64,000 nt of DNA from a virus, in the IMG/VR virus record IMGVR_UViG_3300021091_000020, positions 59,503-123,502 of that record; one strand, written 5' to 3'. The notes below the pieces were generated by a model. The model did not search any database and was not told the origin of the DNA. It saw only the letters and a program-made list of their open reading frames with translations. The position numbers and the translations under genes were made by a program. Each line of letters opens with the position of its first letter. Position 1 is the stretch's first letter. Below are positions 5,685 through 62,774 of the stretch, piece after piece.

Positions 5685-6020
5685 TTAAATTGATGCAATA
5701 ACTGCACCATATTCTTTTGCTTCAAATTTTTCTCTTACCATATCCATCAACCCCTTCTCAACTTCTTTTTTATATTGTTCAATAAAGTATGGAGTTCCTT
5801 CTTCTGCCTTTTCAATATCTTTTATTGCTTCTAATTTTGTAACACATTTCTTTTCACCAACTAATTTTGCAAGTTCAATGAGTGCCTGTGTATCATCATC
5901 CTTTTCTTCAACCGCCTTTTCAATTTTCTTTATAGCAGTTTTTACTTTTTGTCCAAGTCCTTCATCTTCTTCTTTCAATAAAAGACTTTTTAATTTCAAA
6001 GATTTCATTACAAACTCCAA
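5685..6020 (-). CDS. Hypothetical protein with LKLKSLLLKE leader (candidate internal head protein)
   Basis: Lys/Glu-rich; N-terminal tag shared with other ORFs; probable start at the internal Met after GGAG. Confidence 0.6.
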   Translation of the reverse strand: MEFVMKSLKLKSLLLKEEDEGLGQKVKTAIKKIEKAVEEKDDDTQALIELAKLVGEKKCVTKLEAIKDIEKAEEGTPYFIEQYKKEVEKGLMDMVREKFEAKEYGAVIASI

Positions 6021-6023
6021 TGT

Positions 6024-6227
6024 TTATTTACGAGATAATAAAAAATAAAGTCCAAAAAATAACAGCGCTACCGAATAAAATATAATATCGGTAACGATGT
6101 AACTCCCGGTAAGTTTTGTTACTAAAGCAAAGGCCGCATCGAACCCAAGAGGATTGAAAAATGTCCCAAGCACTAAACATATTTTTGCCAACACATCTTT
6201 TAATTGTTTTGAGTTTCTTTTTGACAT
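6024..6227 (-). CDS. Small membrane protein (two hydrophobic helices)
   Basis: Start reassigned to MSKRNSKQ (6227) because the longer ORF overlaps a terminator and the upstream motif; NPLGFD between hydrophobic segments. Confidence 0.55.
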   Translation of the reverse strand: MSKRNSKQLKDVLAKICLVLGTFFNPLGFDAAFALVTKLTGSYIVTDIIFYSVALLFFGLYFLLSRK

Positions 6228-6293
6228 TACGCCATCCCATGTAGTTGCCTTTGTGTGAAAAAATACTTCTGTAACTATAAATATGAGATAAAT

Positions 6294-6320
6294 AAAAAAG
6301 GGTGATGTTTCCACCACCCT
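6294..6320 (-). terminator. Intrinsic terminator after hsp20
   Basis: AGGGTGGTG-GAAA-CATCACCCT followed by a T run on the minus strand. Confidence 0.8.
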
Positions 6321-6337
6321 AAACTTAACATCTAATC

Positions 6338-6733
6338 TTATTTTACTTTGATTGTTATTTCTTCGGGTTCCGTTGGTTTTTCATACGGAACTGAAATATG
6401 AAGAATACCATTCTCAACACTAGCAGTAACTCCTTTCAAATCATATTTGATTTTACCGTTTGGTAATTCAAATCTCAATTCAATTGTTTTTTCACCGAAG
6501 ATGTTTGTAACCTTTCTGTGACCTGTTACATTAAGGATATTGTTTTTTACCGTAATGTTAATATCCTCTTTTGCACAACCAGGAACTTCTGCATAAATGT
6601 TACGAACTCCATCCGCGTCTTGAACTAATGTTCGAGTATTAAAACGAGGTAAATCAAGATGTGTTTTGGACAACTGATTTACAACGTCATCCCATAAATT
6701 GTCTCTACGAAGAATAGAATTTATCGTTACCAT
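6338..6733 (-). CDS. Small heat-shock protein (Hsp20/alpha-crystallin)
   Basis: EVPGxxKEDINI, RFELP and ASVENGILHISVP motifs. Confidence 0.9.
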   Translation of the reverse strand: MVTINSILRRDNLWDDVVNQLSKTHLDLPRFNTRTLVQDADGVRNIYAEVPGCAKEDINITVKNNILNVTGHRKVTNIFGEKTIELRFELPNGKIKYDLKGVTASVENGILHISVPYEKPTEPEEITIKVK

Positions 6734-6763
6734 AATAACCTCGAAAAATTAAAAATAAAAAAG

Positions 6764-6949
6764 TTAATTAGATAATTTAGCAGCTTTTGCTTCGGCAACA
6801 GATGCTTGATTATACGGTGTAATCAATTTCTTAATTGCACTTGCCGCCTTACGAGCAATAGCAGCATCTTTCTTTTTTGTTGAATTATGTGCAACTGTAA
6901 ACTCATTGAATAAGTTTGTTAGTTGGGCATAGATTTCTTGCTTGGCCAT
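6764..6949 (-). CDS. Histone H1-like (Hc1-type) small basic protein
   Basis: 61 aa, KxAAxARKAxxxIKKL helical pattern; strong AGGAGG SD. Confidence 0.6.
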   Translation of the reverse strand: MAKQEIYAQLTNLFNEFTVAHNSTKKKDAAIARKAASAIKKLITPYNQASVAEAKAAKLSN

Positions 6950-6973
6950 AAAACCTCCTGTGTATAATATAAC

Positions 6974-7849
6974 CTACATTATCTCCGGTATCGGTAATTT
7001 TGCATTGGTTATACTTTGTATAAAAAACTTGCGAATTGTGTCTCGCATTCCTGAAACTTTACTTTGTTTGTTAAATACAACATCATATAATTTTTCAAAT
7101 GATGCAGCATCAGCGATAGTATACTGATCTCCCAAAAAGAAATGTATCATTTCTTCCGGTGTTTGTGTTACAAAACTTTCACTACCTGCAATAGTTTTAC
7201 CGGCTTTGATAATACTACCACCTTTACCGGCATAACTTTTTGCTAATCTATAAATTCCTTTGTCATGTCTCATAACATACTTCTCAACTTCAATCGGAAC
7301 ATCCTTATCGGTTTTCTTTAATACTTTGTAATCAACCGCAGAAACAACTGCAGCCAATAAAAAGTTTCTATATGCTTGTTTATATTTTGACTCACCCTTT
7401 GAATAATCCGGTGATGAATAAACAAATTGTGTCCAATTAACATTATTTGATAACATGAAATCAACTTGCACAGGTTCTTCCGTAACTCTGCCGACTATTG
7501 GAAACGGAATAGAAACTTGTGAGAACCCACGAAGTGGCTTTGCATCATAACCCATCTTTTCCAATTCCTTTATCAACCAATCCAATACATCACTTAATTT
7601 CAAACCATTGGCGGATGCCAATTGATCCATTGAAATACCAATGTCCAAGTCACCTGATAATTGAACATCAGGTTTCTTTCCTGCACTACCGAGTATGAAA
7701 CAATCTGTTCCAAAACCGATAAGACCGAGTGGTTTCAAAACAACTGTCTCAATTTTTGAGACAGTTGCCGCCACTTCATTTTGTTTAATCGCCACGGCAT
7801 CGGGAAACATATTCCCACCCTCTGTCAATAATTTCTTTAATTTAATCAT
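6974..7849 (-). CDS. Pol-beta-superfamily nucleotidyltransferase with MIKLKKLLTE leader
   Basis: LGSAGKK...SGDLDI (hGS...DxD) and a third acidic residue in VQVDFM. Confidence 0.7.
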   Translation of the reverse strand: MIKLKKLLTEGGNMFPDAVAIKQNEVAATVSKIETVVLKPLGLIGFGTDCFILGSAGKKPDVQLSGDLDIGISMDQLASANGLKLSDVLDWLIKELEKMGYDAKPLRGFSQVSIPFPIVGRVTEEPVQVDFMLSNNVNWTQFVYSSPDYSKGESKYKQAYRNFLLAAVVSAVDYKVLKKTDKDVPIEVEKYVMRHDKGIYRLAKSYAGKGGSIIKAGKTIAGSESFVTQTPEEMIHFFLGDQYTIADAASFEKLYDVVFNKQSKVSGMRDTIRKFFIQSITNAKLPIPEIM

Positions 7850-7866
7850 GTTATATCAAAAATATG

Positions 7867-8286: not shown

Positions 8287-8293
8287 TTATTAT

Positions 8294-11522: not shown

Positions 11523-11523
11523 A

Positions 11524-15985: not shown

Positions 15986-16834
15986 TCATTTATTGTATTT
16001 CATAAGTTCCTTTAATCTACGAACAACCGTTTCTGGTATTTTTTCCACATTGAATGTGTTATCAACCCAAGCTGGTGCATCATCTGTTTGAGGCATAACA
16101 TCACGCTTTGGAGCACCTGCAACTGGTGGACTTTTTGTTTTTAATGTCTGTACATTACCCCAAATATAGTCCGCAATCGCTTCTGGTGTATCGCCTTTAC
16201 CATATTTCTTAAATACTTCAACTACTGGCTCTTTTATATTATCAATAACATATTTTTTCAATTCACTCTCACCAACTTGAAACAGATTTACACCACCACC
16301 GGCTGCAGTTGGAACTGTTCCAGTTTGAGCAGCAATACCAATTTGAGTGGCTTTAAGTGCTTCGAGTGGTTTTTTAATATCCGTTAAATCAACTGCCTTT
16401 ATCTTTGCATCAGGATTAAGACAGAATACTTGTGACCAACGATGATGTCCGTCAATAACAAATTTACCACCGCCACCTGTTACAATTGATTTCCCAGCAG
16501 GTGCAACTACACCACCTTTCAAGTAGGCCTCTGCACTTGCAGGATCCTTCAATGGAAAACTCAATGATTTATCCATAACAACTTCATTTTGTGTTGGCTG
16601 TAGATCCGTGCACGCAGGTGATAATCCGGATGTTTTAACTGGAGCATCTGACGATAAAGATTTTATGGCATCAACAAATTTAGGATCCTTTATGTTATCT
16701 CCCAATTCTTTTACAAATGATACATAATCCTTTTTTAGAATTTTTTTCAATTCTTCTTGTGCCTCATCTTCATTTAGTTTTGTCTTAACCTCTTTGACTA
16801 AACCTTTTAATAAACTTTTCATAATAAATCTCAA
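15986..16834 (-). CDS. ParB/sulfiredoxin-fold protein (paralog 1)
   Basis: LQPTQNEV and VIDGHHRW motifs; leader ending KLNE. Confidence 0.7.
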   Translation of the reverse strand: MRFIMKSLLKGLVKEVKTKLNEDEAQEELKKILKKDYVSFVKELGDNIKDPKFVDAIKSLSSDAPVKTSGLSPACTDLQPTQNEVVMDKSLSFPLKDPASAEAYLKGGVVAPAGKSIVTGGGGKFVIDGHHRWSQVFCLNPDAKIKAVDLTDIKKPLEALKATQIGIAAQTGTVPTAAGGGVNLFQVGESELKKYVIDNIKEPVVEVFKKYGKGDTPEAIADYIWGNVQTLKTKSPPVAGAPKRDVMPQTDDAPAWVDNTFNVEKIPETVVRRLKELMKYNK

Positions 16835-16849: not shown

Positions 16850-17437
16850 TTATCTTACATTATTTGATAGCAAATGAGTTCTTACTATTTCTTTTATCTT
16901 CTTACGAAGTTTATTTTTTAATCTTTCACTTACTTTTATTTCCGTTTTTTGTTCTTTGCTCATCATTGATTCTATTTGCGTATCTATTTTTTTAGATAAA
17001 TTTTCAGCAACAGAATTTAATTTGGATAAAACAATCTCTAACACTTCAAAATCTTCATCTGTCAATCTTTTTTTAATAAATAATCCAATTTTTTCTATTA
17101 TCTTTCGTATATCAGCTTCATGTGCATCCTTTTCACTTTCAGTATACGCAGCAGATTTTAATGTATCAAGAGATTTGTACAACACCTTTAATGTTGGAAT
17201 TCCTGAAAATCTAGATCCGATTGATTGTAATTTTTCAGAAGTGTCTTTATATTCTTGTGAATCTGCAAACTTATTAAACCAAGAACGAATAGTATTTGTA
17301 TTCTCATTTGGAAAAATAAATTGTAATAGATTTTTATTTCTTTGTATTATATTAGCAACATCTATTAGAACAATGAAACTCATTGGACTAATTGCTGATA
17401 CTGTTATTGATTCATTTACTACTTTTTTTGATTTCAT
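16850..17437 (-). CDS. Hypothetical helical protein
   Basis: 195 aa; VVNE leader and C-terminal LRKKIKEIVR tag. Confidence 0.7.
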   Translation of the reverse strand: MKSKKVVNESITVSAISPMSFIVLIDVANIIQRNKNLLQFIFPNENTNTIRSWFNKFADSQEYKDTSEKLQSIGSRFSGIPTLKVLYKSLDTLKSAAYTESEKDAHEADIRKIIEKIGLFIKKRLTDEDFEVLEIVLSKLNSVAENLSKKIDTQIESMMSKEQKTEIKVSERLKNKLRKKIKEIVRTHLLSNNVR

Positions 17438-17446: not shown

Positions 17447-17761
17447 CTATGGCATTAATGTTATATTCAATCTGTTTTGTATAAGATACAAACTAACACT
17501 TGTCTTTTTATTAAAAAAATGTAACTTTCCAGAGATTGGTTTTTTATATTCAAAACCAATTTTTTTCAAAGCATCAACTATTTCATGTTCTTTGTACATA
17601 CTTGCATCAATGGCATTGTCTGGAAGTATGCTTATCTTTTCTAATATTTTTTTTAATTCATCATAGATAGTATCAAACCCACTTCCTTCGGAAATAGATT
17701 TTACTTTTAATTCTTCAATAACTCTGTTTGTTATTTCGTCTATTAGTGTTTTTAGTTTCAT
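17447..17761 (-). CDS. Hypothetical protein with MKLKTLIDE leader
   Basis: 104 aa, downstream of a conserved-motif copy at 17798. Confidence 0.7.
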   Translation of the reverse strand: MKLKTLIDEITNRVIEELKVKSISEGSGFDTIYDELKKILEKISILPDNAIDASMYKEHEIVDALKKIGFEYKKPISGKLHFFNKKTSVSLYLIQNRLNITLMP

Positions 17762-18242: not shown

Positions 18243-19454
18243 TTAAATTTGTAGAATACTACCAAAATTGTCTCCCGTGTAAATTTTTACTGACATATTA
18301 TCTGTCTCAAATGCAGACTGTAAAACATCAATTAAATCCATTTCATCTGGATGAATATCAAAAACAAAAGCATCATACAGATACATCATAAACACCGACT
18401 TCTTATTTTGTATATGCGGTAAAATACTTTTTATCTTACGAACATTGTATTCGGTTTCCAATGATTGAAGAACATAATTGAATACTTTATTGGGAGTTGC
18501 ATCTTGAATATCTCTGAAATTCTTTTCGTAAAACCAAGACTTAACTATACCATCGGTTTCATATACCGAATACAGTTCATCAATCATTGCTTGAACAGTT
18601 GTAAAGAAAGGATGTTCTATAAACTCTGGAGTTATAGTTCCATATATGTTCTGAAAAACTTTTCCTTTGAATTGTTCATAGTCCATGTCAATTCCTAATT
18701 CATCTTTTATTTGTTCATACGGATGACTTTGGAATTGATAATCCAATATCTTAGCAAGTAGTTTAATATGAAATGCATCATAATCAAACTGAACTATTTT
18801 GCCATCGTCAAACCTTGAACGGATTTTATCTCTACTACCGTTTTTCTTATTCATTGCGGAGAAATTAAAACCATCCCAAGCGTTACTTGGTCTACCAGTT
18901 GCAGTATACCACATATAGTTTTGTTTCTTCCATTCATCACCAACAAGAATATCATTTCTCTCTATTTCATGCAATACTGTGATAAAGTCATTGCAGTAAT
19001 CTATACATTTCTGTTCAATTGGATTATCTTCATAAATCTTCATAACATATTTTGCAATCTTTCTTGCCCATTCTAATTGTTTTGAAAGTGGTATTACATG
19101 GCCTAAATCTTCTATTTTGTAAAATTTATTGACAAGCGTTTCCATACCCTTCGGATAAAATTCTTTTGGATTGATACTGTCTGATGTATAATAATGTAGA
19201 TATGAATTTAGATCGATACCATCATTAAAACCGTTATAGACTAATGCCTTCTTATTCAATACAAGTGTTTTTGGATGCAATTTTATTTCATTCAAATGAA
19301 TGTCTGTATCTACTTCATCTGGATGTGTAAAGTTTATGTAATGTTCTTCACCATCGGTAAATAAAAAATACATACCGATAATGCCAACTGCAGATTGGTG
19401 TTTGTTTGCATTGCTTATGATTGGAATGCAAACCGAAGGTTTTTCTTGGAACAT
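18243..19454 (-). CDS. Short, divergent family A DNA polymerase-like protein
   Basis: TATGRPSN, motif A-like FDYDAFH, motif B-like ...IYG, FNYVLQS, motif C-like LYDAFVFD; only 403 aa. Confidence 0.7.
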   Translation of the reverse strand: MFQEKPSVCIPIISNANKHQSAVGIIGMYFLFTDGEEHYINFTHPDEVDTDIHLNEIKLHPKTLVLNKKALVYNGFNDGIDLNSYLHYYTSDSINPKEFYPKGMETLVNKFYKIEDLGHVIPLSKQLEWARKIAKYVMKIYEDNPIEQKCIDYCNDFITVLHEIERNDILVGDEWKKQNYMWYTATGRPSNAWDGFNFSAMNKKNGSRDKIRSRFDDGKIVQFDYDAFHIKLLAKILDYQFQSHPYEQIKDELGIDMDYEQFKGKVFQNIYGTITPEFIEHPFFTTVQAMIDELYSVYETDGIVKSWFYEKNFRDIQDATPNKVFNYVLQSLETEYNVRKIKSILPHIQNKKSVFMMYLYDAFVFDIHPDEMDLIDVLQSAFETDNMSVKIYTGDNFGSILQI

Positions 19455-44355: not shown

Positions 44356-44381
44356 AAAAAAGGGTGACAAATGTCACCCTT
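44356..44381 (-). terminator. Intrinsic terminator
   Basis: AAGGGTGACA-TT-TGTCACCCTT followed by a T run. Confidence 0.8.
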
Positions 44382-45812: not shown

Positions 45813-45840
45813 AAAAAACCTCACATTATTATGTGAGGTT
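45813..45840 (-). terminator. Intrinsic terminator
   Basis: AACCTCACAT-AATA-ATGTGAGGTT followed by a T run. Confidence 0.8.
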
Positions 45841-45847
45841 CATTTTA

Positions 45848-46955: not shown

Positions 46956-46986
46956 AAAAAAGGAGTGAGAAAAATCTCACTCCTTT
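46956..46986 (-). terminator. Intrinsic terminator after the major capsid gene
   Basis: AAAGGAGTGAGA-loop-TCTCACTCCTTT followed by a long T tract. Confidence 0.85.
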
Positions 46987-49843: not shown

Positions 49844-49972
49844 TTATTTTTTTTCTATTTTTTCGATAGGTTTTTTTGTAGGATCATACTGAAAGATTGA
49901 TTTTGCATCATTTTCTGTATAGATGTATCTCTTATTTCGGTCTTTTGTATCTATTTTCTTTTCATCGGCCAT
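49844..49972 (-). CDS. Small 42-aa protein coupled to the ADP-ribosyltransferase (not in the ORF track)
   Basis: GGAG SD 7 nt before ATG; MADEKKIDTKDRNKRYIYTENDAKSIFQYDPTKKPIEKIEKK; overlaps the ART stop. Confidence 0.6.
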   Translation of the reverse strand: MADEKKIDTKDRNKRYIYTENDAKSIFQYDPTKKPIEKIEKK

Positions 49973-51149
49973 AGTTTTGCTCCACTAATATCTTGTAAAT
50001 ATTTCTCGTATCGTTAAATCCTTGTATAGTATATCTACAATTTCTTGGAAGTGTTACCTCTGTTTCGTGACAATAATCATTTGAGTGACATGGTAATGTT
50101 AGTATAGAAGTTCCAGCAGGAATTAAAAATTCAAATAATGGCAATCTCTTTTTTCCAGTTCCTTCTGTAATTAAAGGATTTAATGATGTTGTTACAAATG
50201 ATTTATCTACCCATTGTCCTGCATCAATAAACATTTGTAATACTTTTTCATTTTCTACGGAACGATATGAAACTATATTATATTCTAATTTTTGTAATTG
50301 TTCGTCAAATGCATAGTCCATTTCACGAATAGTAAATGCATTCATTGCACTTTTATATTGTTTTTCCCTTTTATCGCCTTCTTTTGGTTTACCTAACTTT
50401 AATTGTTTTTGTATTTCAGGTTTTGTTAAACTTGGTTTAGCAAATCTCAATATGTTAATTATTCTTTCAGTGTTCAAATAATAATAACCCAATGCCATTA
50501 GAGTTTCTTTATCTATTGATTTTGGTGTTATTAAAGAATACTTTGATACTGCAATCATTTCTGCTCGTTTGTATAACTTTTTAAAATTTACCCCATCTTC
50601 ATCAAATCTTAAATCATACATATCAATTATATCTTCATAATCATATTCCAACAGTTGTTCACGTGTTTTTGGATATAGATTGTCTGTTTTGGTATCTAAT
50701 TTTTCTGCATCAACTTTATTCAAAAAACCAACAGTTTTTAATCCAGTTTTTTCTTCATTTGGTTCTTTTGGTTTTTGTTCTGGTTTTTTTTCTGCTTTAT
50801 CACCCGCATCACCTTTTGGTTTTTCTTCATCAGAAGTTGCAGAATCTTCTTTTTTTGAATCATCGGTTTTAATTTCTTCTTCAGAATCAGTTGGTGTTTC
50901 TTCTGAAGAAGTTTCTTCTTCTTCTTTTGTAGTTTCTTTTGGAGCAGATTTTTGATGTTTTGCTGGATCAAAACTTTTTTTACTTATGTAATACGACTTT
51001 CCACTTTCTTTATTAACAACAAGCATTTTTTCAGGATCTTCGCTTGCAGGTTTTTCGTCTTCTTCTGATAACGAAAAAGACCTTTCCAGGTTTTCAATAA
51101 CTTTCCGTGTTTCCTCACGGATTAGTTTTTCAATACTAGCAAAGGTCAT
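49962..51149 (-). CDS. ADP-ribosyltransferase (R-S-E clade, VIP2/Alt-like) with N-terminal leader
   Basis: YR, FVTTSLNP and HETEVTLPR (ExE) catalytic motifs; leader EKLIREETRKVIE...LSE. Confidence 0.82.
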   Translation of the reverse strand: MTFASIEKLIREETRKVIENLERSFSLSEEDEKPASEDPEKMLVVNKESGKSYYISKKSFDPAKHQKSAPKETTKEEEETSSEETPTDSEEEIKTDDSKKEDSATSDEEKPKGDAGDKAEKKPEQKPKEPNEEKTGLKTVGFLNKVDAEKLDTKTDNLYPKTREQLLEYDYEDIIDMYDLRFDEDGVNFKKLYKRAEMIAVSKYSLITPKSIDKETLMALGYYYLNTERIINILRFAKPSLTKPEIQKQLKLGKPKEGDKREKQYKSAMNAFTIREMDYAFDEQLQKLEYNIVSYRSVENEKVLQMFIDAGQWVDKSFVTTSLNPLITEGTGKKRLPLFEFLIPAGTSILTLPCHSNDYCHETEVTLPRNCRYTIQGFNDTRNIYKILVEQNYGR

Positions 51150-51159: not shown

Positions 51160-51393
51160 TTAAATGTTTTCTGAATCGAGTTTTCTCTGTCTTCTTACAG
51201 CAGCATTTCTTTTTTCAGATTTTCTTTTTGATGGTTTAATGTATTCCATGCGATTTTTATATTCTTCAAGAATACCGGCTTCTTTTACCTTACGTTTAAA
51301 TACCTTAATCATTGTATCTACATTCATTCCACCTGCCTTAACTTTAACATGAGCAGGTTTTGAACTGGTATAAACTCTGTCTGACATAACCAT
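51160..51393 (-). CDS. rpsU: Ribosomal protein bS21
   Basis: IKVFKRKVKEAGILEEYKNRMEYIKPSKRK matches the bS21 signature. Confidence 0.88.
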   Translation of the reverse strand: MVMSDRVYTSSKPAHVKVKAGGMNVDTMIKVFKRKVKEAGILEEYKNRMEYIKPSKRKSEKRNAAVRRQRKLDSENI

Positions 51394-51999: not shown

Positions 52000-52671
52000 T
52001 TATCTCCCATCAAATATGCATTCACAAACATTACCAATTTCACAAATAATGTTTGTTATATTATTATGGATGCGATTTATTTTAGGATCTATTTTTGCGA
52101 TTGTTGAAGTTGATATACCTTCTGTAATCAATTCTTCATGTAAACCTTCTTTCATTCCTTGTGGATACATAAATGCACCATGAGTTGATGGATTTGAAAC
52201 AAAATCCCAACCAATCAATTCAAAATCATCTTGAACTTCAACTGTGCTTTCACTTATTTCTTCAACAGAACCTAACCCTCTTGATGATATTCCAAGACGA
52301 ATACCTGCACCAAGAAGTTGTTTTAGTATATTTCCGGATGGTGTTGGTAGTATCTCAACTGTGCCAACTACATCATTATCTTTCCAATGTACACCAAGAA
52401 CATTATGTGAAACATTACGAAGATTGATTATGGATGAATCTGGATGGTCAAGTTCACCGAGAGCACGATTTTCTTTTATTTGATTTTCGGCATACTTCTT
52501 AACTTCACGCATTAAAATCTTTTTGGGATATACTCTACCATTTTGATTTTTTGCTTCAGCTCTTTGTAATACTCCGGAAACTATAACTTTGCCACCATTT
52601 TTCTTTTCAGATTCGGTAATCATTTTTGGGGTTACATTAAAAAGTATAGTATCTACGAGTAGTTGTTTCAT
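52000..52671 (-). CDS. Prohead core protease (T4 gp21-like)
   Basis: NQNGRVYP, GELDHP, GISSRGLGS, DFVSNPS. Confidence 0.95.
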   Translation of the reverse strand: MKQLLVDTILFNVTPKMITESEKKNGGKVIVSGVLQRAEAKNQNGRVYPKKILMREVKKYAENQIKENRALGELDHPDSSIINLRNVSHNVLGVHWKDNDVVGTVEILPTPSGNILKQLLGAGIRLGISSRGLGSVEEISESTVEVQDDFELIGWDFVSNPSTHGAFMYPQGMKEGLHEELITEGISTSTIAKIDPKINRIHNNITNIICEIGNVCECIFDGR

Positions 52672-52673
52672 TT

Positions 52674-53177
52674 TTATGCACCTAATTCGTTAATTTTTTT
52701 TGTAATTCTGTTTATTCTTTCGGATATTTTTCTCAATCTAGTCATTGATTCACCCCAAAGAGTTCTTTGATCAACATTCATTTCTGTTTTTAATCTCAAT
52801 GCATGTTCAACAACTCTTTCTACTTCGTAGATTGTTCTGTTTATATTCTTAATCGAATCATTTATTTTTCTGTTTGAACTTCTTGTTTCATCCGTTCTAA
52901 AATCTTTATATGTTCCTTCCGAAATTAAACCCATTGCCTGTTTGTAGGTTGATTCATAATTTTTCTTTTTTGTTTTAGGAACAAGTTTATATCCATAAAC
53001 TTCTGCAGTTTCTTTGTTGTGTTCTTCAAAATCTTCTTCACTCTTAGCAAAAGCATTTGGCGTTTGGTATCCGGGAACACCAGCAGTTGTGCTCATTTCA
53101 TCGAGTGATAATTCTTCAGCAAACTGACGATATTCTTCTGTTTCTTTTAATTTTGTTATGAAAGATTCAACATTCAT
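52674..53177 (-). CDS. Hypothetical head-module protein
   Basis: LDE/ISE sites, GYQTPNAF motif, C-terminal coiled coil. Confidence 0.7.
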   Translation of the reverse strand: MNVESFITKLKETEEYRQFAEELSLDEMSTTAGVPGYQTPNAFAKSEEDFEEHNKETAEVYGYKLVPKTKKKNYESTYKQAMGLISEGTYKDFRTDETRSSNRKINDSIKNINRTIYEVERVVEHALRLKTEMNVDQRTLWGESMTRLRKISERINRITKKINELGA

Positions 53178-53185
53178 ATATTACA

Positions 53186-53503
53186 TTACCTAACAAGTTG
53201 ATTTTTTATTAAAGCATAAACTGTTCCAGAATCTACTGTAACAGAATTTAATGCAAATTCAAATATACGTTGTGCTCCAGATAAATCAGATAACGGAATA
53301 CTACCACCTGCAGAAAAATATGCAGTTCCACTAGCGCCTGCAGGAACAATTAAACCACCTTGACCATAGTTTGAACCGGTGAATGTAGTTGTTCCAGATG
53401 TGCATGTTATTGATTTTAAGAATTTTCCAGGATGCCCCTTTCTTTCAAATTCATTTGCCTGTGATGCAGGAAAATTATATGGGTGTATTTCATTGACTGA
53501 CAT
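53186..53503 (-). CDS. Hypothetical protein, small and beta-rich (possible head decoration)
   Basis: Gly/Ser/Thr-rich 105 aa in the head module. Confidence 0.55.
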   Translation of the reverse strand: MSVNEIHPYNFPASQANEFERKGHPGKFLKSITCTSGTTTFTGSNYGQGGLIVPAGASGTAYFSAGGSIPLSDLSGAQRIFEFALNSVTVDSGTVYALIKNQLVR

Positions 53504-54345
53504 TATTTACTCCATGATAAATCGTCTATTAAACTGTAATAACGAAGTAGAGCAGATATATGATTTTCTTCTACTTTCTTTATTGTTTCATATTCATCCA
53601 AAAGTCCTGCAACTTCTTGTAATTTTATTTTTAGGGATTTGTCTTTTACCCTATGCATATTTTTTGTAAACAATCTTTTTATAGTTACCGCTTCTGTTTG
53701 AACAAGAGACTTTAAGTTATTTGTATTACTAACATTTTCTATGTATTCTCTTAACAATACCTTTTGTGACTCGGTTAAATTGTTATATTTTGCATTAAAT
53801 TTTTCAACAAGATACTTGTAAGCCATCAAACGAACTTCTTTTGATTCTTGTGTAATAGCAAAATCTTCTGTTATCACGGATGTATTTGGTTTTGATGTTA
53901 TACTTTCAAGTATTGTTATACGAGACTTTGTAATTTCAATTGGGTTATCCAACTCATTATATTCAAAAACCTTGTATACTGACGCAAGTATTTTATAGTT
54001 TTGAACTTTTGTTTGAAAAAATGTATCAATATCAAAGTTTTCTTTGATTGATTTTATCAATTCATACTTTTCGTTCTGTAATTTATGTTTGTTTAACCCA
54101 CGTCTTGCTTTCAATACTGCCTCTATTAACATATTTGCCTTCGTGTCTGACTTTAATTTTTCATCACAAAGGGTTTTATACAATTTATATTCCTTAATAA
54201 GTTCTGTGTTCTTATTAAAGAATTTTTTGAGAATCTGAATGGCAACAGATTCGTTGGAGGAAATGATGTCTGATGTTATTTGACGAGTCAATAACTCAAA
54301 CAGCATTGCAGTATTTTTGAATTTAGAATGTTTAATTTTCTTCAT
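53503..54345 (-). CDS. Hypothetical head-module protein following portal
   Basis: KIKHSKFKNT...LFELL; helical 280 aa; own copy of the upstream motif. Confidence 0.7.
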   Translation of the reverse strand: MKKIKHSKFKNTAMLFELLTRQITSDIISSNESVAIQILKKFFNKNTELIKEYKLYKTLCDEKLKSDTKANMLIEAVLKARRGLNKHKLQNEKYELIKSIKENFDIDTFFQTKVQNYKILASVYKVFEYNELDNPIEITKSRITILESITSKPNTSVITEDFAITQESKEVRLMAYKYLVEKFNAKYNNLTESQKVLLREYIENVSNTNNLKSLVQTEAVTIKRLFTKNMHRVKDKSLKIKLQEVAGLLDEYETIKKVEENHISALLRYYSLIDDLSWSK

Positions 54346-54396: not shown

Positions 54397-56262
54397 TTAC
54401 AATTCATCTAATAAATTGTTCTCATTCAACAAATTTGATTCATTTTCGTGTTTAATAGTCGGTTTAAGACTTTCCGATATTATTTTTTTTGTTTTAATCT
54501 TTATACCGGACATACTATCTATCAACTTACCTATATCACGGTTTTCAAGTGATAACGGTGAATTTCCTTTGTAATTTACTTTTGGTGAATTATTAACCTT
54601 CAATGTATTACCAACATCTTTCTTTCCAATAGGATCCCTGCCAAATGGACTGTTATCTGTTCCATAACTTAAATTCTTAGCAGGTCTACCAGCTCCAGGC
54701 CAACCACCTTCTGGAACTTCGGCATCGTTTATTACTTTACCACCACCGCGAACTTGCATACTTGCAATATCATGTGGTGTTCCAAACGATTCTTTTGTTA
54801 TCGCAGGATCATTGCCTTCATTTTCAATTTGTTTTTGACGGAACATATGTTTAATATCTTCAAGAACTTCATTCTTTTCAAATTCTGCCTCGTCTTCTGA
54901 AAGGTTGAATATGTTTGAATAAATATATTTCAATGAAAATAGTTTCTTTTCTATCAGTGTTCCCGCCAAGTCCACTTTTTCTTTCATAAGAGCAACTTTT
55001 TCTTGTTCATATATGATAGAAGGTCCTGTTAATCCTAATTCAAAGTTTACCAAATCTGCATTTTCATATCCTTGAGCATACAAATGAACAATTGCAATCT
55101 TTGTCAATTCAGAAACCACAATTCTTTGCACTCTTTCTATTGTTCTAGCAAAACGAATATCAAGAGCGGCAAGTGTTGCCTTTCCTTCTATACTTTCATC
55201 ATAGCCCAAATACGGTTTTGGCACTTTAAGTGCAGCAAAGATTTTACTTTTTAGATATTCAATATCTTCAATTGCTTGATATTGTAAACCTGCAAGTGTT
55301 TCTATTGATGTACCAGATTGTCCACCACGAACAGGAAGATAAAAGTCTTCCAAAAGGTTTTGCATATTAAAACGAAGATTATAGTCACCAGTTTGTTCAT
55401 TTACGAGTGGAGTTTTCTTCATTCTATTCATAAGATTGTTCATGTATTGATCTACTTCGGCAGGTGGTATATTACCAATATCAACTTTAAAAATACGTTT
55501 TTCAGGAGCACGCATAATACGATGTATCAACATCGCATCTTCCATTAGAACTAGTTGTTTGTATAATTTTCTAGCACCTTCCAACATTGATTTACCGTAT
55601 GGTAAAAAGTTAGTATCACCGAGTAAACGAAAATGAGCAATTTCATAATTTTGAAATTCACCCCTACCGAGAGGACCTTCATAAACAAATTTAGTCATAT
55701 AGATATGTTCCGGATCAGTTCCTTCTTCTCTCTGCATTTCGTATGGTGAAAACGGAACAACATTTGTAACACCAAGTTCTTCTTTTACATCCATATACAA
55801 ATAAAAATCACCGTATTTACAAAGATTACGAATCCACGGCCAAAGATTATATTCTATATTAAGAACATCATAAAAAAGATTACGAAGTATTTTACGAATG
55901 TTATCATTATCTGTTTTTATGGTGAGAACATCACCTTGATCATTTTTTAGAGTGCTTTCATCAGAATATATGTCAAGTGCAGATGATATTATGGCATCGG
56001 TGTCCATTGCCTCATAATCAGTATAAAGATCTATTTTTGTTGCTGCGAATGAATTGTATTGATTGTATACTGATATTGGAGTTCCCTTTGTTCCATGTAA
56101 TCTGCCATATCTATCAATAACTTTTGATGTGTGTGGGTTTCCATCACCTTGATAGCGAGCAGTATCAACAACTTTTAATTTTTTACCACCAACATTACGA
56201 ACAACAACATTAGTAGAAAAAAGTGTTTTTAGTCTATCAAATAATGATTTATTTTGTGCCAT
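54397..56262 (-). CDS. Portal protein (T4 gp20-like)
   Basis: MEDAMLIHRIMRAPEKRIFKVDIGN, EDFYLPVRGG, ALKVP. Confidence 0.96.
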   Translation of the reverse strand: MAQNKSLFDRLKTLFSTNVVVRNVGGKKLKVVDTARYQGDGNPHTSKVIDRYGRLHGTKGTPISVYNQYNSFAATKIDLYTDYEAMDTDAIISSALDIYSDESTLKNDQGDVLTIKTDNDNIRKILRNLFYDVLNIEYNLWPWIRNLCKYGDFYLYMDVKEELGVTNVVPFSPYEMQREEGTDPEHIYMTKFVYEGPLGRGEFQNYEIAHFRLLGDTNFLPYGKSMLEGARKLYKQLVLMEDAMLIHRIMRAPEKRIFKVDIGNIPPAEVDQYMNNLMNRMKKTPLVNEQTGDYNLRFNMQNLLEDFYLPVRGGQSGTSIETLAGLQYQAIEDIEYLKSKIFAALKVPKPYLGYDESIEGKATLAALDIRFARTIERVQRIVVSELTKIAIVHLYAQGYENADLVNFELGLTGPSIIYEQEKVALMKEKVDLAGTLIEKKLFSLKYIYSNIFNLSEDEAEFEKNEVLEDIKHMFRQKQIENEGNDPAITKESFGTPHDIASMQVRGGGKVINDAEVPEGGWPGAGRPAKNLSYGTDNSPFGRDPIGKKDVGNTLKVNNSPKVNYKGNSPLSLENRDIGKLIDSMSGIKIKTKKIISESLKPTIKHENESNLLNENNLLDEL

Positions 56263-56321: not shown

Positions 56322-57905
56322 CTATTTTATTAACCAAGTTAAATCTTCATTATGTCCATTTACTGTCATATTCCAACCATCTCGGTCATCTCCATATTGA
56401 TATGAAGGTTTTAGTGGTGTTGTTGATTTCCCCATGTAATCTAAACTCATTCGTGTCTTCAGCAATCCCTCTTGACGAAGTTTTAGAGCAGTATCTCTAA
56501 CCCAAAGTCCTATTGCAAATGACATAACCAAGTCATCATTATATCCTGTTTGTGCCTCTGCTTTTGCACCATTCCAAACAAACACATATAGTTCTTGTGT
56601 TAATCTTGAAGACTTTATTATTGGTAATCTTTCACGAAAATATGTTTCCAATTTTGAAATCAAAAGTGGTCTTGTTTTAGCACTTGTAGTAAATCCAGGA
56701 ATCATTTGTGCCTTGTCTTTTAAGTCATAACCCTTTGGAATATGAACGGATGGATCAGTATACCCATCTTCACGGTATGTATAATAAAGATTTGGATAAC
56801 CTCTATCAATTATTTGTTGAATTGCTGCCCACCCAATGTTAGCATTTTCAACTACAAGAAGAGCATCGTTATATTCTGTTGCAACTGATACTAACATATT
56901 ACCATAAGTTTTTGTATCAAGTTTTCCTTTGTATTCTGCAACTTGTTCCATGTTTTCAACATCAATCACATGGAAAGCTGAATTATCATTTCCGTCACCA
57001 CGAGCAACATCAGCAATAACCATATATGTTTTATTTGGTTCTGGATAATTCCAAATCCAATAAGCATCCTCTGCACCACGCCGTTCTTTTGGTTCACACA
57101 CATAAGTTTGTTCATACCATTGGACAAGTTCACCATCAATTACGGAACGACCAGATGTAAGAAAATTCCCATCACATTCTTGTTTAGCCATGTCAGGACC
57201 CAATAGTATGTCCTGTTCATCACGCCATTTTTGGTCACGGTCTGGATGAACGTGCCATAATAATTCTATCGGATTGAAAGAACTTTCACCGAGTTTTGCC
57301 TTTACCCATTGTTTATGATAAAAGTTACCAACACCATTTGGGGTAGAGTTGATAATAGCAGTTCCACCGGTAGCAAGTGTTTGTTGTGCAGATGCCCATA
57401 TTCTATCTATGTCATCAATAAAGGCGGCCTCGTCTATGATAAGAAGTGAAAGTGCTTCAGAACGAGCGGAGTCAGCGGCAGCAGAAACGGCTTTTATTTG
57501 TGAACCGTTCTTAAATCGAAGTGAAAGTTTGTTATCTTCTTGAACACCGGTTTTCAACCAACTCGGCATATTGTCATACATAACACGAACTTTTGTTACC
57601 AAGTTTTTAGCAGTTTCTTGTTTTGTAGCAATAACGAGAATGTTTTTATCCTGATTGAATAACATCAACCAAAGTGAATATCCAGCAATAACTGTGGATA
57701 TACCTAACTGACGAGACTTTAATACGATATTCCACCGGTTACTATTAAATTCTCTAAGCACATCTTCCTGAAATGGATATAGGTCGAATAATATCTTGCC
57801 ACGAGTTGGATGTTGAATTTTAGCATAACGCTTCATAAAGTATACCGGATTAGCGGCACACTTTGCATATTCTTCTTTGATAATATCTTTTAGATTCTTA
57901 CTCAT
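56322..57905 (-). CDS. Terminase large subunit (T4 gp17-like)
   Basis: KSRQLGIS, IIDEAAF, STPNG, DVARGDGND, NDDLVM. Confidence 0.96.
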   Translation of the reverse strand: MSKNLKDIIKEEYAKCAANPVYFMKRYAKIQHPTRGKILFDLYPFQEDVLREFNSNRWNIVLKSRQLGISTVIAGYSLWLMLFNQDKNILVIATKQETAKNLVTKVRVMYDNMPSWLKTGVQEDNKLSLRFKNGSQIKAVSAAADSARSEALSLLIIDEAAFIDDIDRIWASAQQTLATGGTAIINSTPNGVGNFYHKQWVKAKLGESSFNPIELLWHVHPDRDQKWRDEQDILLGPDMAKQECDGNFLTSGRSVIDGELVQWYEQTYVCEPKERRGAEDAYWIWNYPEPNKTYMVIADVARGDGNDNSAFHVIDVENMEQVAEYKGKLDTKTYGNMLVSVATEYNDALLVVENANIGWAAIQQIIDRGYPNLYYTYREDGYTDPSVHIPKGYDLKDKAQMIPGFTTSAKTRPLLISKLETYFRERLPIIKSSRLTQELYVFVWNGAKAEAQTGYNDDLVMSFAIGLWVRDTALKLRQEGLLKTRMSLDYMGKSTTPLKPSYQYGDDRDGWNMTVNGHNEDLTWLIK

Positions 57906-58273: not shown

Positions 58274-58276
58274 AAA

Positions 58277-58615: not shown

Positions 58616-58617
58616 AA

Positions 58618-58962
58618 TTAACCTTTTGTATAAGTTGAAACCATTTTTGCCTTACCACGAGCAGTTGCACCCTTTTTTCTCTTTCGTGTTACGGCACTTC
58701 TTTTTTGTTTTGATGACATCGAAGCGGCTTTTGCTGCAGGAACACATTTTGGATATGCTCTCTTACCACCTTTTCTGGCCTTACTACCAGCAGAGGCGCC
58801 GCATGGTGGATGTCCACCACTTTTTTTCTTACGAGAAATATCAACCCATCTTTCTCTAAACCAACCAGTTAAACCACCACTCGGCTTTTTTCCTTCACGA
58901 ATATATTGTGAGATATACTCTCTGATGATTTCTTTAACGATATTTTCTGTTGTTTTATTCAT
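58618..58962 (-). CDS. Basic Cys-containing protein with VKEIIRE leader
   Basis: GLTGWFRERWVD...CG...YPKCVP; very Lys/Arg-rich. Confidence 0.7.
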   Translation of the reverse strand: MNKTTENIVKEIIREYISQYIREGKKPSGGLTGWFRERWVDISRKKKSGGHPPCGASAGSKARKGGKRAYPKCVPAAKAASMSSKQKRSAVTRKRKKGATARGKAKMVSTYTKG

Positions 58963-58993
58963 ATCAATAAATATAATAATTTTTTTATTTTAT

Positions 58994-60562: not shown

Positions 60563-60586
60563 AACAAATTTACCAAATTTTAATTA

Positions 60587-61174
60587 TTAAGTCTTATCTA
60601 TTGCACCTTTACCCGAACTTGGCCATCCAAAACGGCATGACCAATATCTTGCCTTATGTCTTGGTCCTGGTGATTGACAATTGTGACGAGCACGGAAAGA
60701 CTTTCTTCGGGCTGCATTGCTCTTTTTAATACGCATTGTTTTCTTACCACCCTCACCCTTGTGACCAAAGTTTACTTTTACGATATTACCATTTGATTTT
60801 TTAACATAAACAGAAAACTTTTTTGGACCACCGGGCGTTCTAAACGGTTTTCCTAAACTAACTTTTCTACCACGATATTCAGCTTCATTCATCATGTTAG
60901 GTTCATTTTCTTGAATACGAAAATGTAATTCAGTAATTTTACCACAAGGATTTGTAGCATATCCTTCAAGTTGATAGCCGGGATTTACAATAGTTTCTTT
61001 TACATTACGAAATCCACCACCCGCAGCTTTATATGCTTTAACAAGAGCACCTGAAGCATATGCACTTGGCCATACTTTATATTTACTTTTAATTCTTGAT
61101 TTTATTCTTGAATAAAGTTTTTTATTTGTAGGAACTGCCCTTTCAATTATTATTGATTTCATCACCTTCTCCAT
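60587..61174 (-). CDS. Two-domain basic protein
   Basis: Domain 1 WPSAYASGALVKAYKAAGGGF; MNE linker; domain 2 RRKSFRARHNC...ARYWSC. Confidence 0.75.
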   Translation of the reverse strand: MEKVMKSIIIERAVPTNKKLYSRIKSRIKSKYKVWPSAYASGALVKAYKAAGGGFRNVKETIVNPGYQLEGYATNPCGKITELHFRIQENEPNMMNEAEYRGRKVSLGKPFRTPGGPKKFSVYVKKSNGNIVKVNFGHKGEGGKKTMRIKKSNAARRKSFRARHNCQSPGPRHKARYWSCRFGWPSSGKGAIDKT

Positions 61175-61409
61175 TTTCTATCTTTGTAAATTTGTTTGCA
61201 AATTGTTCTGATGCTACTGAAAAAAGACTACCAACTACTATGTAAAGAAAACCATCGAATATAAATTGTTCAACTTTCTTATCATAAAAGGTTGATACTA
61301 TTGCCATAAATATCATAACACCAAAAGAAAAAAACATCATCACACGCTTGGATGATATTCTACCACTAAAACCACTAAAAGTTTGAGCAACTGGATTAAG
61401 TTTATTCAA
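61143..61409 (-). CDS. Small two-TM membrane protein, holin-like
   Basis: SSKR followed by two hydrophobic helices and a charged tail. Confidence 0.55.
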   Translation of the reverse strand: MNKLNPVAQTFSGFSGRISSKRVMMFFSFGVMIFMAIVSTFYDKKVEQFIFDGFLYIVVGSLFSVASEQFANKFTKIENGEGDEINNN

Positions 61410-62019
61410 CTCTTTCTCCTAAATCTTTTTCTAACTTTTCAATAAAGTTCTTTCTAAACTCTGCAAATTCATTTTGTATTTTTTCTAACATTTCTTCTTT
61501 GTTAAATGGCGTTTTCCAATTTTCAATATCACCAAAATCGTTTGTAAATTCCATTCTTGATAATTCATTGGCAATTATATTTTTATCACGTTCTGCATCT
61601 TCCAACCATGCAAGTGCATTTTGTTTCAATTTTGTTTTTTCATATTCATCCCACTTGCCTTCAAGACGAATTTTATGTTCCATATCAATCACACAATCAA
61701 AACACATACCGTGAATTTTTTTCATTTTTTGGTCAAGTCTTTTAGGCATACCACAAGTGCAAGTTTCTTTTGGGCATTTTGGAAATGTATTCAAATACTG
61801 ATGTAACTCTTGTTGCCATTCTTTTCCAAGTTTTATTTTATATCCATTCTTTTGTTCCCATTCGTTACCATCTTCGTCAAACCACTTATCACCAATTTTA
61901 CGAATTTCGTTATCTTCTTTTTTATTTGCAGAAAAACCAACTTGAACTTTTTGCTGACTATCGTGTTCTCCCGCAAGAAGTTTTTTTACATCTTGTATAC
62001 TATCAATTTTAATATCCAT
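61402..62019 (-). CDS. Hypothetical protein with Cys pairs (possible Zn binding)
   Basis: CPKETCTC and CFDC; GDKW...WEQKNG. Confidence 0.7.
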   Translation of the reverse strand: MDIKIDSIQDVKKLLAGEHDSQQKVQVGFSANKKEDNEIRKIGDKWFDEDGNEWEQKNGYKIKLGKEWQQELHQYLNTFPKCPKETCTCGMPKRLDQKMKKIHGMCFDCVIDMEHKIRLEGKWDEYEKTKLKQNALAWLEDAERDKNIIANELSRMEFTNDFGDIENWKTPFNKEEMLEKIQNEFAEFRKNFIEKLEKDLGERVE

Positions 62020-62030
62020 AACATAACCTT

Positions 62031-62774
62031 TTACTTTATTATTTCGTTGTAAACTTTATTCCAAAATTTTCTTGTTATCATGTGCATAGGTCTTAACCCA
62101 TTTTTATCGGATTTTACTTCTTTCATTTTTCCACGTTTTGTATTGAACTTGGAAACAACCATATTGAATATCTCAACATCAAACCATCCAAATATAGAAA
62201 TAAAACGAGACTTTAATTCAGCTAATTTAGCACTTCTATCGGCCAAAGCAGAAAAAATACTCTTTGATCCCATTTTGCCAAAACTTGGAATATCGTAACG
62301 AACATGATTAACAATCATATAATATACATACGGATTTTGAATATCTTTGTATGCCAATTGACTACTACCATTCCAACGCATCAATCTCTTGTAGTCTTTT
62401 AATTTAGATACATGATCTTTATCAACCGCATAAATTACAATGGTGCTATCGTTATCAAATTGTTCGATGACATCTGTTGCATGAAATGGTGTATTTGATT
62501 TCATAATCCGCTTAACATTATGACGACGCATAATTGCAGACTTTTCATCAAATGTTAGTGGTTTTTCTATTGGATCAGTAGTATCGTCTGTAACAATATA
62601 AACATTTTCTTTATCAAACTTACGGCAAATTCTATCATATTCTTCTTTATGATATATTGCCATCGGTTGAAATTTACCAGGATAAATTACAAGAACATCC
62701 TTATCTACCAAATCATTTTCATTGAATATGGCAAGGTTCATTTCCTTAATCAATTTTAATATTGATTTATTCAT
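62031..62774 (-). CDS. Cytidylyltransferase-like (HUP fold) protein with degenerate HxGH motif
   Basis: VIYPGKFQPMAIYH, PLTFDEK; leader LKLIKE...IFNE. Confidence 0.6.
   Translation of the reverse strand: MNKSILKLIKEMNLAIFNENDLVDKDVLVIYPGKFQPMAIYHKEEYDRICRKFDKENVYIVTDDTTDPIEKPLTFDEKSAIMRRHNVKRIMKSNTPFHATDVIEQFDNDSTIVIYAVDKDHVSKLKDYKRLMRWNGSSQLAYKDIQNPYVYYMIVNHVRYDIPSFGKMGSKSIFSALADRSAKLAELKSRFISIFGWFDVEIFNMVVSKFNTKRGKMKEVKSDKNGLRPMHMITRKFWNKVYNEIIK

Follow-up and report, generated by a model that had tools for sequence, protein, structure and literature searches.

T4-like N-terminal leaders as candidate capsid-targeting propeptides on unrelated proteins of a far-T4-like phage

The second half of a far-T4-like phage genome, a 64-kb window comprising bases 59503-123502 of the 123,502-base IMG/VR record IMGVR_UViG_3300021091_000020 (the window being the whole stretch of DNA analysed), encodes at least ten proteins that begin with a short leader ending in hydrophobic-x-Glu and that, together with six encoded elsewhere in the genome, are candidate head cargo by this leader rule. 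The leaders are probably propeptides resembling the capsid-targeting sequence (CTS) of phage T4, used for head targeting and cleavage. The proposed signal is an amphipathic N-terminal stretch with hydrophobic residues (Phi) at positions -6, -3 and -2 from an essential Glu, often with Lys or Arg before them, and its purest form would be M-I-K-L-x-x-[LI]-[LIV]-x-E. Such a leader would dock a newly made protein into the assembling prohead, where the gp21-family serine protease encoded at 52000-52671 would then cut after the Glu (predicted cuts are marked below by a slash), and the mature protein would stay inside the head. An earlier sequence-only reading of the window had quoted ten N-terminal strings of this kind, all of which are present at the N-termini of minus-strand genes; because the genes lie on that strand, which carries all real genes of the window, the positions by which they were named (5685, 6974 and so on) are low, stop-codon ends and the leaders are encoded at the high ends (Table 1).

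Open reading frames (ORFs) were called genome-wide with a script written for the analysis, which kept the longest non-overlapping frames and ranked starts on their codon and Shine-Dalgarno score without regard to the peptide; 142 usable ORFs resulted, and two manual corrections raised this to 144. For ORFs 5685 and 15986 and the scaffold gene at 48665, a TTG four codons upstream of the ATG overlaps a Shine-Dalgarno-like GGAG, and the ATG is therefore the likelier start. The motif [LIVM][LIVM]-x-E was found in 21 of 142 ORFs, where 6.2-6.8 were expected (0/1000 shuffles), and Phi-x-x-Phi-Phi-x-E in 16 of 144, where composition-preserving shuffles of the N-termini gave 2.5 (0/500). Because these two motifs had been chosen after the fact, a third was also used, the T4 register ^M..Phi..Phi[LIV].E, derived from what parts of the T4 literature say of the CTS (PMC9026906). 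It is matched by four of the 144 ORFs of this genome (0.22 expected, reached in 0/500 shuffles), by five in Flavobacterium phage immuto (0.44, 0/500), four in Microcystis phage Mel-JY01 (0.38, 1/500) and four in T4 itself (0.51, 1/500); the corresponding figures are one in Rhodothermus phage RM378 (0.30, 133/500), one in Staphylococcus phage K (0.51, 198/500) and none in Bacillus phage SPO1 (0.38 expected). No match to the S77 protease family was found in phage K or SPO1. The matches in T4 comprise ipII and ipIII (verified), gp61.1 and a 427-residue ORF that presumably sits at the gp24 position, while alt is recovered only if Phe is allowed at position 8; as ipII and ipIII are among them, the register test recovers known positives. 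The T4 hypothetical protein gp61.1 (54 residues; T4 record 18966-19130) begins MKTFKEFIKE, the exact CTS register of ipII and ipIII.

In the families examined, the leader sequence varies among homologues while Phi-x-Glu stays at the junction with the conserved domain. The nucleotidyltransferase B (letters as in Table 1) has 76 database homologues, down to 49% identity, and 58 of these start M-[IL]-[KR]-L-[KRT]-x-[LIV]-[LIVQ]-x-E; eight are annotated with a start at an internal Met, a position at which many other members have Leu, and three are fragments or N-terminally unrelated. In all 65 homologues that include the junction, Phi-x-Glu stands directly before a conserved [GS]-G-[NH], and where variants carry a six-residue insertion (MIKLKSLLKE-IRAISE-GGN) a second Phi-x-Glu closes it. 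Alignment of 27 sequences shows Glu10 to be invariant and Lys3 and Leu4 nearly so. The AlphaFold2 (AF2) model of B, the one confident model obtained, has a mean predicted local distance difference test score (pLDDT) of 89, with residues 1-11 below 50 (unstructured), and the leader, conserved yet disordered, is thus a conserved linear motif and not part of the fold. Furthermore, among 14 distinct leader DNAs from homologues of B and of the DUF7178 protein L, positions 1-4 (M, I, K, L) and 10 (E) vary only synonymously, positions 7 and 8 stay Leu or Ile through several codons, and positions 5, 6 and 9 are free; since codons change while residues stay, selection acts on the peptide and not on an RNA or DNA element.

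The same junction recurs in otherwise different families. For X, 33 related loci were recovered, to about 30% identity, and all 16 distinct N-termini printed show, by eye, [LIV]-x-E/[SATG] at the junction, followed by Ile. In 16 loci related to A, the conserved [EVT][DE]EG[LVI] follows three different leaders that each end in Phi-Phi-x-E (LLKE, or LIKE in three close loci, MIRE and IIKE). L-[KR]-x-Phi-Phi-x-E is present in 64 of 68 full-length homologues of I, and two more have another Phi-Phi-x-E leader, for example IKLKSVLEE. In the S-adenosylmethionine (SAM)-lyase family of P, Phi-x-E lies directly before a conserved S-S-L-S-R in 114 of 120 homologues, whose leaders are 3 to 20 residues long and include one canonical MIKLKNILKE. 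[KR][KR]LFE/DD is kept in four loci related to J, and Phi-x-E precedes GKKP[STK]GG in nearly all of the 49 related to G, an earlier IIRE site being less constant. M-[KS]-x-Phi-Phi-Phi-E is kept in 80 close relatives of E, and the Mel-JY01 relative has MKIKKIIFE/D.

The leaders are also exchangeable between homologues, as the portability proposed in the sequence-only reading predicts. When 61 IMG/VR loci sharing the mature domain of the ParB-like protein C were sorted by leader class, 39 had an MKNSLKxLVNE-type leader, seven a 10-mer in T4 register (MIKLMDLLKE, MLKLLDILKE), eight a leader resembling the C-terminal tail of the scaffold, and two another leader; in five no anchor was found. The eight tail-like leaders read R-Phi-[RKQ]-x-L-A-[GRN]-[LI] followed by a Phi-x-Glu site, seven being of the RLRKLAGL kind (...IRLRKLAGLVINE/D) and one ...RRFKKLARLNE/D. 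One contig carries both genes, with NRFKKLAGLK as the scaffold terminus and IRLRKLAGLVINE as the leader of the cargo. The echo of the scaffold terminus that the sequence-only reading had seen in C-terminal tags is real, but it is a feature of N-terminal leaders of relatives and not of C-terminal tags. When RLQKLAGLLKE and MIKLMDLLKE are lined up at the predicted cleavage Glu, K-L-x-x-L-L-x-E is common to both, and because of this the short leaders look like minimal forms of the tail type. Since relatives use a literal copy of the scaffold tail on the same cargo, the leader may occupy the binding site of that tail, the binding of the tail to the shell being an assumption. Two immuto proteins (record 111675-112139 and 25097-25456) have the N-termini ..RRMQKLAGIITE/S and ..FLAGIITE/S, which nearly copy the immuto scaffold C-terminus RWQKLAGIIK and continue into a Phi-x-Glu site.

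A blind DNA-pattern scan of IMG/VR was made for the encoded 11-mer M-I-K-[LF]-K-x-x-[LF]-[LF]-x-E, with two free codons after M-I-K-L-K. It gave 88 matches, 38 of them with a downstream ORF of at least 60 residues, and in 37 of these 38 the match lay at the ORF start. With the leader removed, the 37 proteins fall into 21 clusters without mutual similarity, and in 13 of 35 loci the few kilobases fetched include genes 43-65% identical to hallmark genes of this phage (for capsid, protease, portal, terminase, sheath, UvsX or DnaB). The hallmark genes and the 21 clusters tie the tag to the lineage and place it on many unrelated proteins. In unrelated IMG/VR contigs, genes with MIKLK leaders are often preceded by a ATATTTATA(T/A)AA box that ends at the ATG (L369:2043-2062, L405:4733-4752, L419:1373-1392 and others) and that could be a promoter.

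A stronger version of this reading is possible, if doubtful: the leader would be a detachable copy of the docking tail at the scaffold C-terminus, giving a natural plug-and-play system of cargo loading, encapsulin-like with release by protease, with which the lineage would load more than 20 unrelated families for first-strike delivery with the DNA (SAM lyase, Pol-beta nucleotidyltransferase, ParB-like nucleases, Nudix-like enzymes).

The head module supplies the predicted partners. The gp21-family protease that had been placed at 52000 is borne out by its Peptidase_S77 match (Table 1), and it has possible self-processing sites, predicted as MITE/S at the N-terminal end and ELITE/G at the C-terminal end, the C-terminal ITE motif being comparable in kind to KEITE/S near the C-terminus of T4 gp21. 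C-terminal processing of T4 gp21 and an LIE site near its N-terminus are described in a section of PMC9026906. The scaffold begins MNDLLKE/A, with 114 Asp and Glu among the 349 residues after MNDLLKE, and a tail motif R[LFWMI][RKQ]x[LI]A[GN][LIM] stands at the end of the ORF upstream of the major capsid protein (MCP) gene in 80 of 80 related loci and is likewise terminal in Mel-JY01, immuto and RM378. Alignment places T4 gp23 SFLTE/A, which we take to be the Glu65 cleavage, on the predicted MCP maturation site QLIEE/S after Glu60 here, on QLISE/A in Mel-JY01 and on QIVSE/A in immuto, and Phi-Phi-x-E/[ASNTQ] stands at the maturation site in 80 of 80 relatives. A predicted complex of MCP and B scored 0.00 against a mark of 0.32, was made without controls and was weighed neither for nor against.

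A further head-module protein, H, has an N-terminus that is conserved in 28 related loci (residue 12 being E, D or K) and relatives with Pro/Glu/Thr-rich repeats in an acidic region of varying length; its acidity, its repeats and its place in the head module make a role as second scaffold or core protein likelier than one as cargo. Just upstream of the protease, a 167-residue ORF (52674-53177, minus strand) ends ..TRLRKISERINRITKKINELGA (TRLRKI...), resembling the scaffold tail NRLRKLAGLK, and may be a core protein in what we take to be the gp67/gp68 position of T4.

Several points weigh against the leaders being targeting propeptides. In the form in which the sequence-only reading had defined it, simply hydrophobic-x-Glu, the motif stays at chance level, unlike the tighter forms given above: [LIVM]-x-E lies in the first 14 residues of 35 of 142 ORFs, whereas internal windows predict 28.5 (P 0.10) and shuffled N-termini 27.1, with 35 reached in 19 of 1000 shuffles. 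Two of the three enriched motifs are post hoc, gene calls and start choices were made by the analysis itself, and the manual corrections gave B its long start and put the minus-strand genes X and D in place of one plus-strand ORF. A loose form of the motif is not significantly enriched in Mel-JY01 (7 against 5.0 expected), and its enrichment is absent in RM378 although an S77 homologue is present there. Terminase (MSKNLKDIIKE) and an exonuclease (MNRKYQRLLQE) also match here and their orthologues do not, so that matches in a single genome include false positives (two of about 17 function-annotated proteins; about 2.5 expected). The leaders of D and O and the LLKE of the scaffold N-terminus are not kept in Mel-JY01, where the orthologue of D lacks the leader motif. 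In two of the 68 homologues of I the Glu is replaced by Ala or Gly, and the Glu of P and I could be structural because the residues after it are also conserved. Within this genome, the leaders share only K-L-x-x-L with the phage's own scaffold tail, and a search upstream of genes for the T4 late promoter TATAAATA (at most one mismatch) gave no pattern that sets the leader genes apart. Among the literature listings scanned, no paper describes such leaders in the lineage; nor was any paper found that names Mel-JY01, or any virion proteome for the lineage.

The Phi-x-Glu sites could be genuine protease sites and yet not a delivery tag, either because core or scaffold parts are cut and expelled or because a propeptide keeps enzymes inactive until head maturation, with nothing injected. 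In T4, gp22, gp67 and gp68, which belong to the core or scaffold, are fragmented and expelled in this way. The cleavage of T4 core proteins to fragments that leave the head is also covered in part of PMC9026906, and such a role would suit H, which is acidic, repeat-rich and encoded beside the scaffold, as well as the motif at the scaffold's own N-terminus; ejection of the leader-bearing proteins, moreover, is only inferred. Most carriers, however, are folded enzymes or very basic proteins and not acidic, scaffold-like chains, they are encoded far from the head module, and the T4 proteins retained in the virion (internal proteins, Alt, gp24) carry exactly such N-terminal propeptides, as passages of PMC9026906 relate, which makes this explanation an unlikely one.

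Less probable still, with perhaps a slim chance, is that the leaders have no capsid link and are generic amphipathic helices or a by-product of A/T-rich codons that favour translation initiation. The genome, at 33% G+C, favours Lys, Ile, Leu and Asn codons, terminase and exonuclease bear the motif by chance, and in phage K the loose motif occurs 11 times against 6.2 expected (23/500 shuffles), in part through duplicate genes in the terminal repeats. This explanation has to contend with the excess over composition-preserving shuffles, with a Glu that is invariant at a fixed distance under synonymous codon change, with background counts of the strict register in K and SPO1, the AT-rich controls, with the replacement of the leader by scaffold-tail sequence, and with the disproportionate share of the S77 lineage among loci picked by pattern. 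That chance and paralogy explain everything, a few duplicated genes sharing an N-terminus (the tandem M and N, with identical MKDLVNEGR, and the paralogues C and J) and the remainder being pattern-seeking with motifs refined post hoc, is very improbable, as the other carriers have no detectable similarity, the register taken from the literature is in excess in T4 and in three related genomes, and the junction is conserved across hundreds of homologues.

Read as T4-CTS-like propeptides, the leaders invite comparison with T4, from whose CTS the system differs in lineage, leader sequence, number and enzyme character of the candidate cargo, and relation to the scaffold tail. According to parts of PMC9026906, the first 10 residues of T4 IPIII are alone needed for packaging, targeting depends on residues 4 and 7 of the CTS and processing on residues 8 and 10, and gp21 cuts after L/I-x-E; the signal sequence has long served to find ip genes in T-even phages, as excerpts of PMC12373910 and PMC3012670 recount. 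Like the CTS of IPI-III and the propeptides of Alt and gp24, the leaders here are N-terminal stretches of about ten residues with hydrophobic positions 4, 7 and 8 and Glu at 10; the L/I-x-E rule (predicted here), the protease family and the scatter of otherwise unrelated carriers over the genome are also shared, and E and G, extremely basic after leader removal, resemble the DNA-associated internal proteins of T4. In contrast, there is no sequence identity to the T4 CTS (MKTYQEFIAE, compared with MIKLKKLLTE), the hydrophobic/Glu pattern alone being common to both, about 16 candidate carriers, many of them enzyme-sized, stand against a handful confirmed in T4, and the leaders are 7 to about 23 residues long. 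Furthermore, leaders of relatives can copy the scaffold C-terminal tail, whereas T4 gp22 ends ...VASRF.

In the giant phages, too, a Glu-cleaving gp21-like protease acts on head-internal proteins, as is predicted here. Their cleavage motif is S/A/G-x-E and not L/I-x-E. Diverged gp21 homologues, many head-internal proteins cut after Glu, and propeptides that can hold several sites are described for phiKZ, 201phi2-1 and SPN3US in passages of PMC9026906 (see also PMC5694885, PMC7411985 and PMC10052503). The giant-phage propeptides are long, unlike a 10-mer tag, and the present genome, at 123 kb, gave no hint of inner-body proteins. Another parallel is offered by the cargo-loading peptides of encapsulins and by engineered P22 scaffold fusions, where a short peptide of, or like, a partner that binds the inner shell directs unrelated enzymes into an HK97-fold shell. 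Encapsulin tags are usually C-terminal and uncleaved, unlike the leaders here, which are N-terminal and carry a protease site and for which shell binding is a supposition. We know of no leader motif common to this system and the Dar anti-restriction proteins of phage P1. The Dar proteins, enzyme-sized, loaded into a myovirus head and injected as excerpts of PMC9024508 and PMC12810830 describe, belong to a different phage lineage and assembly hierarchy.

The candidate payload comprises a Pol-beta-type nucleotidyltransferase, two ParB-like proteins, two extremely basic DUF5872 proteins, a large helical protein, a SAM-lyase-like protein, a beta-flower protein, a DUF7178 protein and several orphans. 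All-against-all BLASTP finds the leader-bearing proteins mutually unrelated except for C with J and M with N, in agreement with the claim that the tags sit on unrelated proteins. The proposed nucleotidyltransferase is upheld in B, which has the motif GSAGKK..SGDLDIGIS with G54, D67 and D69 invariant and S55 nearly so (G[GS]...D-x-D) and whose AF2 model gives Foldseek matches to Pol lambda/beta (E 2.5e-5, TM-score 0.36-0.40); B itself has no Pfam match, and PF01909 is found in 33% of the members of a neighbouring Atlas cluster. The two ParB-fold proteins that had been named are moderately supported: J and C are paralogous by BLASTP (E 3e-7), DGHHRW is invariant in their family and Pfam ParBc_2 (PF08857) is matched by seven of 12 members (best E 5.9e-4), the window's own copy being unmatched. 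A profile of the C family searched against the PDB gave matches that were discarded as calmodulin noise.

For the HUP-fold protein of the sequence-only reading, F gives a weak lead: the orthologue in Mel-JY01, 42% identical, begins MGKLINILLSE and carries a cytidylyltransferase-like annotation, and there is a weak PDB match to phosphopantetheine adenylyltransferase (E 0.53), so that a HUP-class nucleotidyltransferase is at most weakly suggested. The basic proteins of the proposed payload are present. E matches Pfam DUF5872 (E 7.4e-10) from residue 11 onwards and has a mature isoelectric point (pI) of 10.6, and G has a weak DUF5872 match (E 2.5e-4, below the cut-off), a match to PHROG 23735 and a mature part of pI 11.6 with 27 Lys and Arg and 2 Asp and Glu. 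P matches its family (PF23780, E 3.2e-13, 50.2 bits against a curated cut-off of 28) and its SAM-lyase-like activity is predicted. In Mel-JY01 a 428-residue protein (record 52405-53691) is a fusion of a P homologue (residues 8-189) to an X homologue (192-349), and a D homologue adjoins the fusion gene, which links these three candidates.

No ADP-ribosyltransferase family, as proposed in the sequence-only reading, was found at E ≤ 0.01 in 18 leader-bearing candidates (among 20 proteins scanned); I, the 448-residue protein, is modelled as a large, all-helical protein (AF2, pLDDT 66). A TIR domain considered for I (E 0.07-0.13) was abandoned after that model. Searching BFVD with the I model gave no match at E ≤ 0.001, and the Atlas search for I was uninformative. 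For ten candidates, PHROGs gave only unnamed families, for three of them, and PADLOC nothing; phmmer against the PDB found nothing significant for B, C, F and X, and nothing useful was found in the literature on DUF5872, DUF7178 or the beta-flower domain. Tags at the C-terminus are not established: the three strings quoted (RRLKELMKY and LRKKIKEIVR among them) and the scaffold terminus RLRKLAGLK exist, the strict scaffold-tail motif occurs in 0 of 17 candidates, and a loose, post hoc 'basic amphipathic' rule that includes the three strings is matched by 7 of 144 ORFs against 2.7 expected.

Table 1. Leader-bearing candidates and head-module genes. Positions are those of the window unless marked as genome positions (the six leader-bearing genes outside the window); a slash marks a predicted cut.
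Feature	Position	Strand	Length (residues)	Details
A, helical, Lys/Glu-rich	5685-6008	-	107	leader MKSLKLKSLLLKE/EDEG, encoded 5970-6008
B, Pol-beta-type nucleotidyltransferase	6974-7849	-	291	leader MIKLKKLLTE/GGN, encoded 7820-7849
C, ParB-like (DGHHRW)	15986-16822	-	278	leader MKSLLKGLVKE/VKTKLNE/DE; first 11 residues encoded 16790-16822
X	16850-17437	-	195	pI 9.5; leader MKSKKVVNE/SIT, encoded 17411-17437; C-terminus LRKKIKEIVR...
D, weaker candidate	17447-17761	-	104	leader MKLKTLIDE/ITN, encoded 17735-17761; 2 related loci recovered
I, all-alpha	44405-45751	-	448	pI 9.0; leader MTNSRKQLNSLKYLMNE/V, encoded 45701-45751; own terminator 44360-44381
J, C paralogue	45848-46858	-	336	pI 9.4; leader MKQTNKKRRLFE/DDE, encoded 46823-46858; just downstream of MCP
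MCP, gp23-like	47009-48646	-	545	PHROG major head protein, E 1e-74; propeptide encoded 48467-48646
Scaffold, acidic	48665-49735	-	356	directly upstream of MCP; 50% identity to Mel-JY01 protein at same position; tail RLRKLAGLK encoded 48668-48694
H, acidic, scaffold-like head-module protein	49962-51149	-	395	between bS21 gene and scaffold; N-terminus MTFASIEKLIREE/TRKVIE/N
Prohead protease, T4 gp21 family	52000-52671	-	223	Pfam Peptidase_S77 (PF03420), E 4.1e-30, 105 bits against cut-off 27
Portal	54397-56262	-		in head module
Large terminase	56322-57905	-		Pfam Terminase_6N
G, DUF5872-related	58618-58962	-	114	likely long leader ending YIRE/GKKPSGG, encoded 58894-58962
E, DUF5872	60587-61162	-	191	leader MKSIIIE/R, encoded 61142-61162; mature part pI 10.6
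F	62031-62774	-	247	leader MNKSILKLIKE/MNLAIFNE/ND; first 11 residues encoded 62742-62774
Beta-flower domain protein	genome 17594-18031			leader MIKLKDILEE
L, DUF7178 protein	genome 18028-19191			leader MIKLRNILNE
M and N, tandem paralogues	genome 22005 and 22327			identical starts MKDLVNEGR
O	genome 26643			leader MHPIKKMIIE
P, SAM-lyase family	genome 57659-58306			just outside window; leader MAKLKHLLPDKQLNE

The window has a G+C content of 33%, and no tRNA genes were found in it. The MCP is 72% identical to that of Mel-JY01, 55% to that of immuto and 38% to that of RM378, with about 28-30% identity to T4-type phages, and the gene order is the same as in Mel-JY01. In order of transcription the head module consists of terminase, portal, three small ORFs, protease, a DUF3008 protein, bS21, the acidic protein H, scaffold and MCP, and the remainder of the window holds tail and replication genes. 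The bS21 gene (51160-51393, minus strand; Pfam Ribosomal_S21, E 5.6e-13) thus lies within the head module, between protease and scaffold, and the Mel-JY01 gene at this position is annotated RpsU. Other auxiliary genes on the minus strand of the window encode a thioredoxin (102-359, E 3e-18), an Hsp20-like protein (6338-6733, PHROG 432) and a PhoH-like protein (42973-43722, PHROG 170), and outside the window a GroES-like Cpn10 (E 1e-25) and a full-length GroEL-like Cpn60 (548 residues, E 1e-75) are encoded at genome 14546-16507 (plus strand). Two giant minus-strand ORFs, 22678-31617 (2979 residues) and 761-5650 (1629 residues), have no Pfam match, the second also being without a PHROG match; from where they lie, they presumably encode tail, baseplate or fibre proteins. 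Minus-strand ORF 63631-63984 reads LVPLVPLV... repeats; it lies upstream of, and in another frame than, the 5'-open ORF 63005-64000 that leaves the window, and might be the wrong frame of a gene with repeats at the window end.

Terminator-like sites number 19 against 7.0 expected, and strong hairpins of 9-12 bp follow the MCP gene (46959-46986), J (45816-45841) and I (44360-44381). As each of the three genes has its own strong hairpin, separate and probably abundant transcripts for MCP and the next two genes are suggested. A sigma-70 scan gave 80 sites against 81.4 expected.

Should the rule hold, a Phi-x-x-Phi-Phi-x-Glu leader together with an S77 protease would predict the head-internal proteins of widespread, mostly uncultured aquatic T4-like phages, and the T4 trick of tagged head cargo would extend to a widespread environmental phage lineage. 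The leader-bearing proteins would then be in the host ahead of all phage gene expression, and the SAM lyase, the nucleotidyltransferase, the ParB-like nuclease and the DNA-coating basic proteins would be concrete candidates for injected counter-defence or takeover functions. Furthermore, copies of a scaffold tail are a possible origin of capsid-targeting sequences, and the leaders suggest short natural tags with which foreign proteins could be loaded into phage heads.

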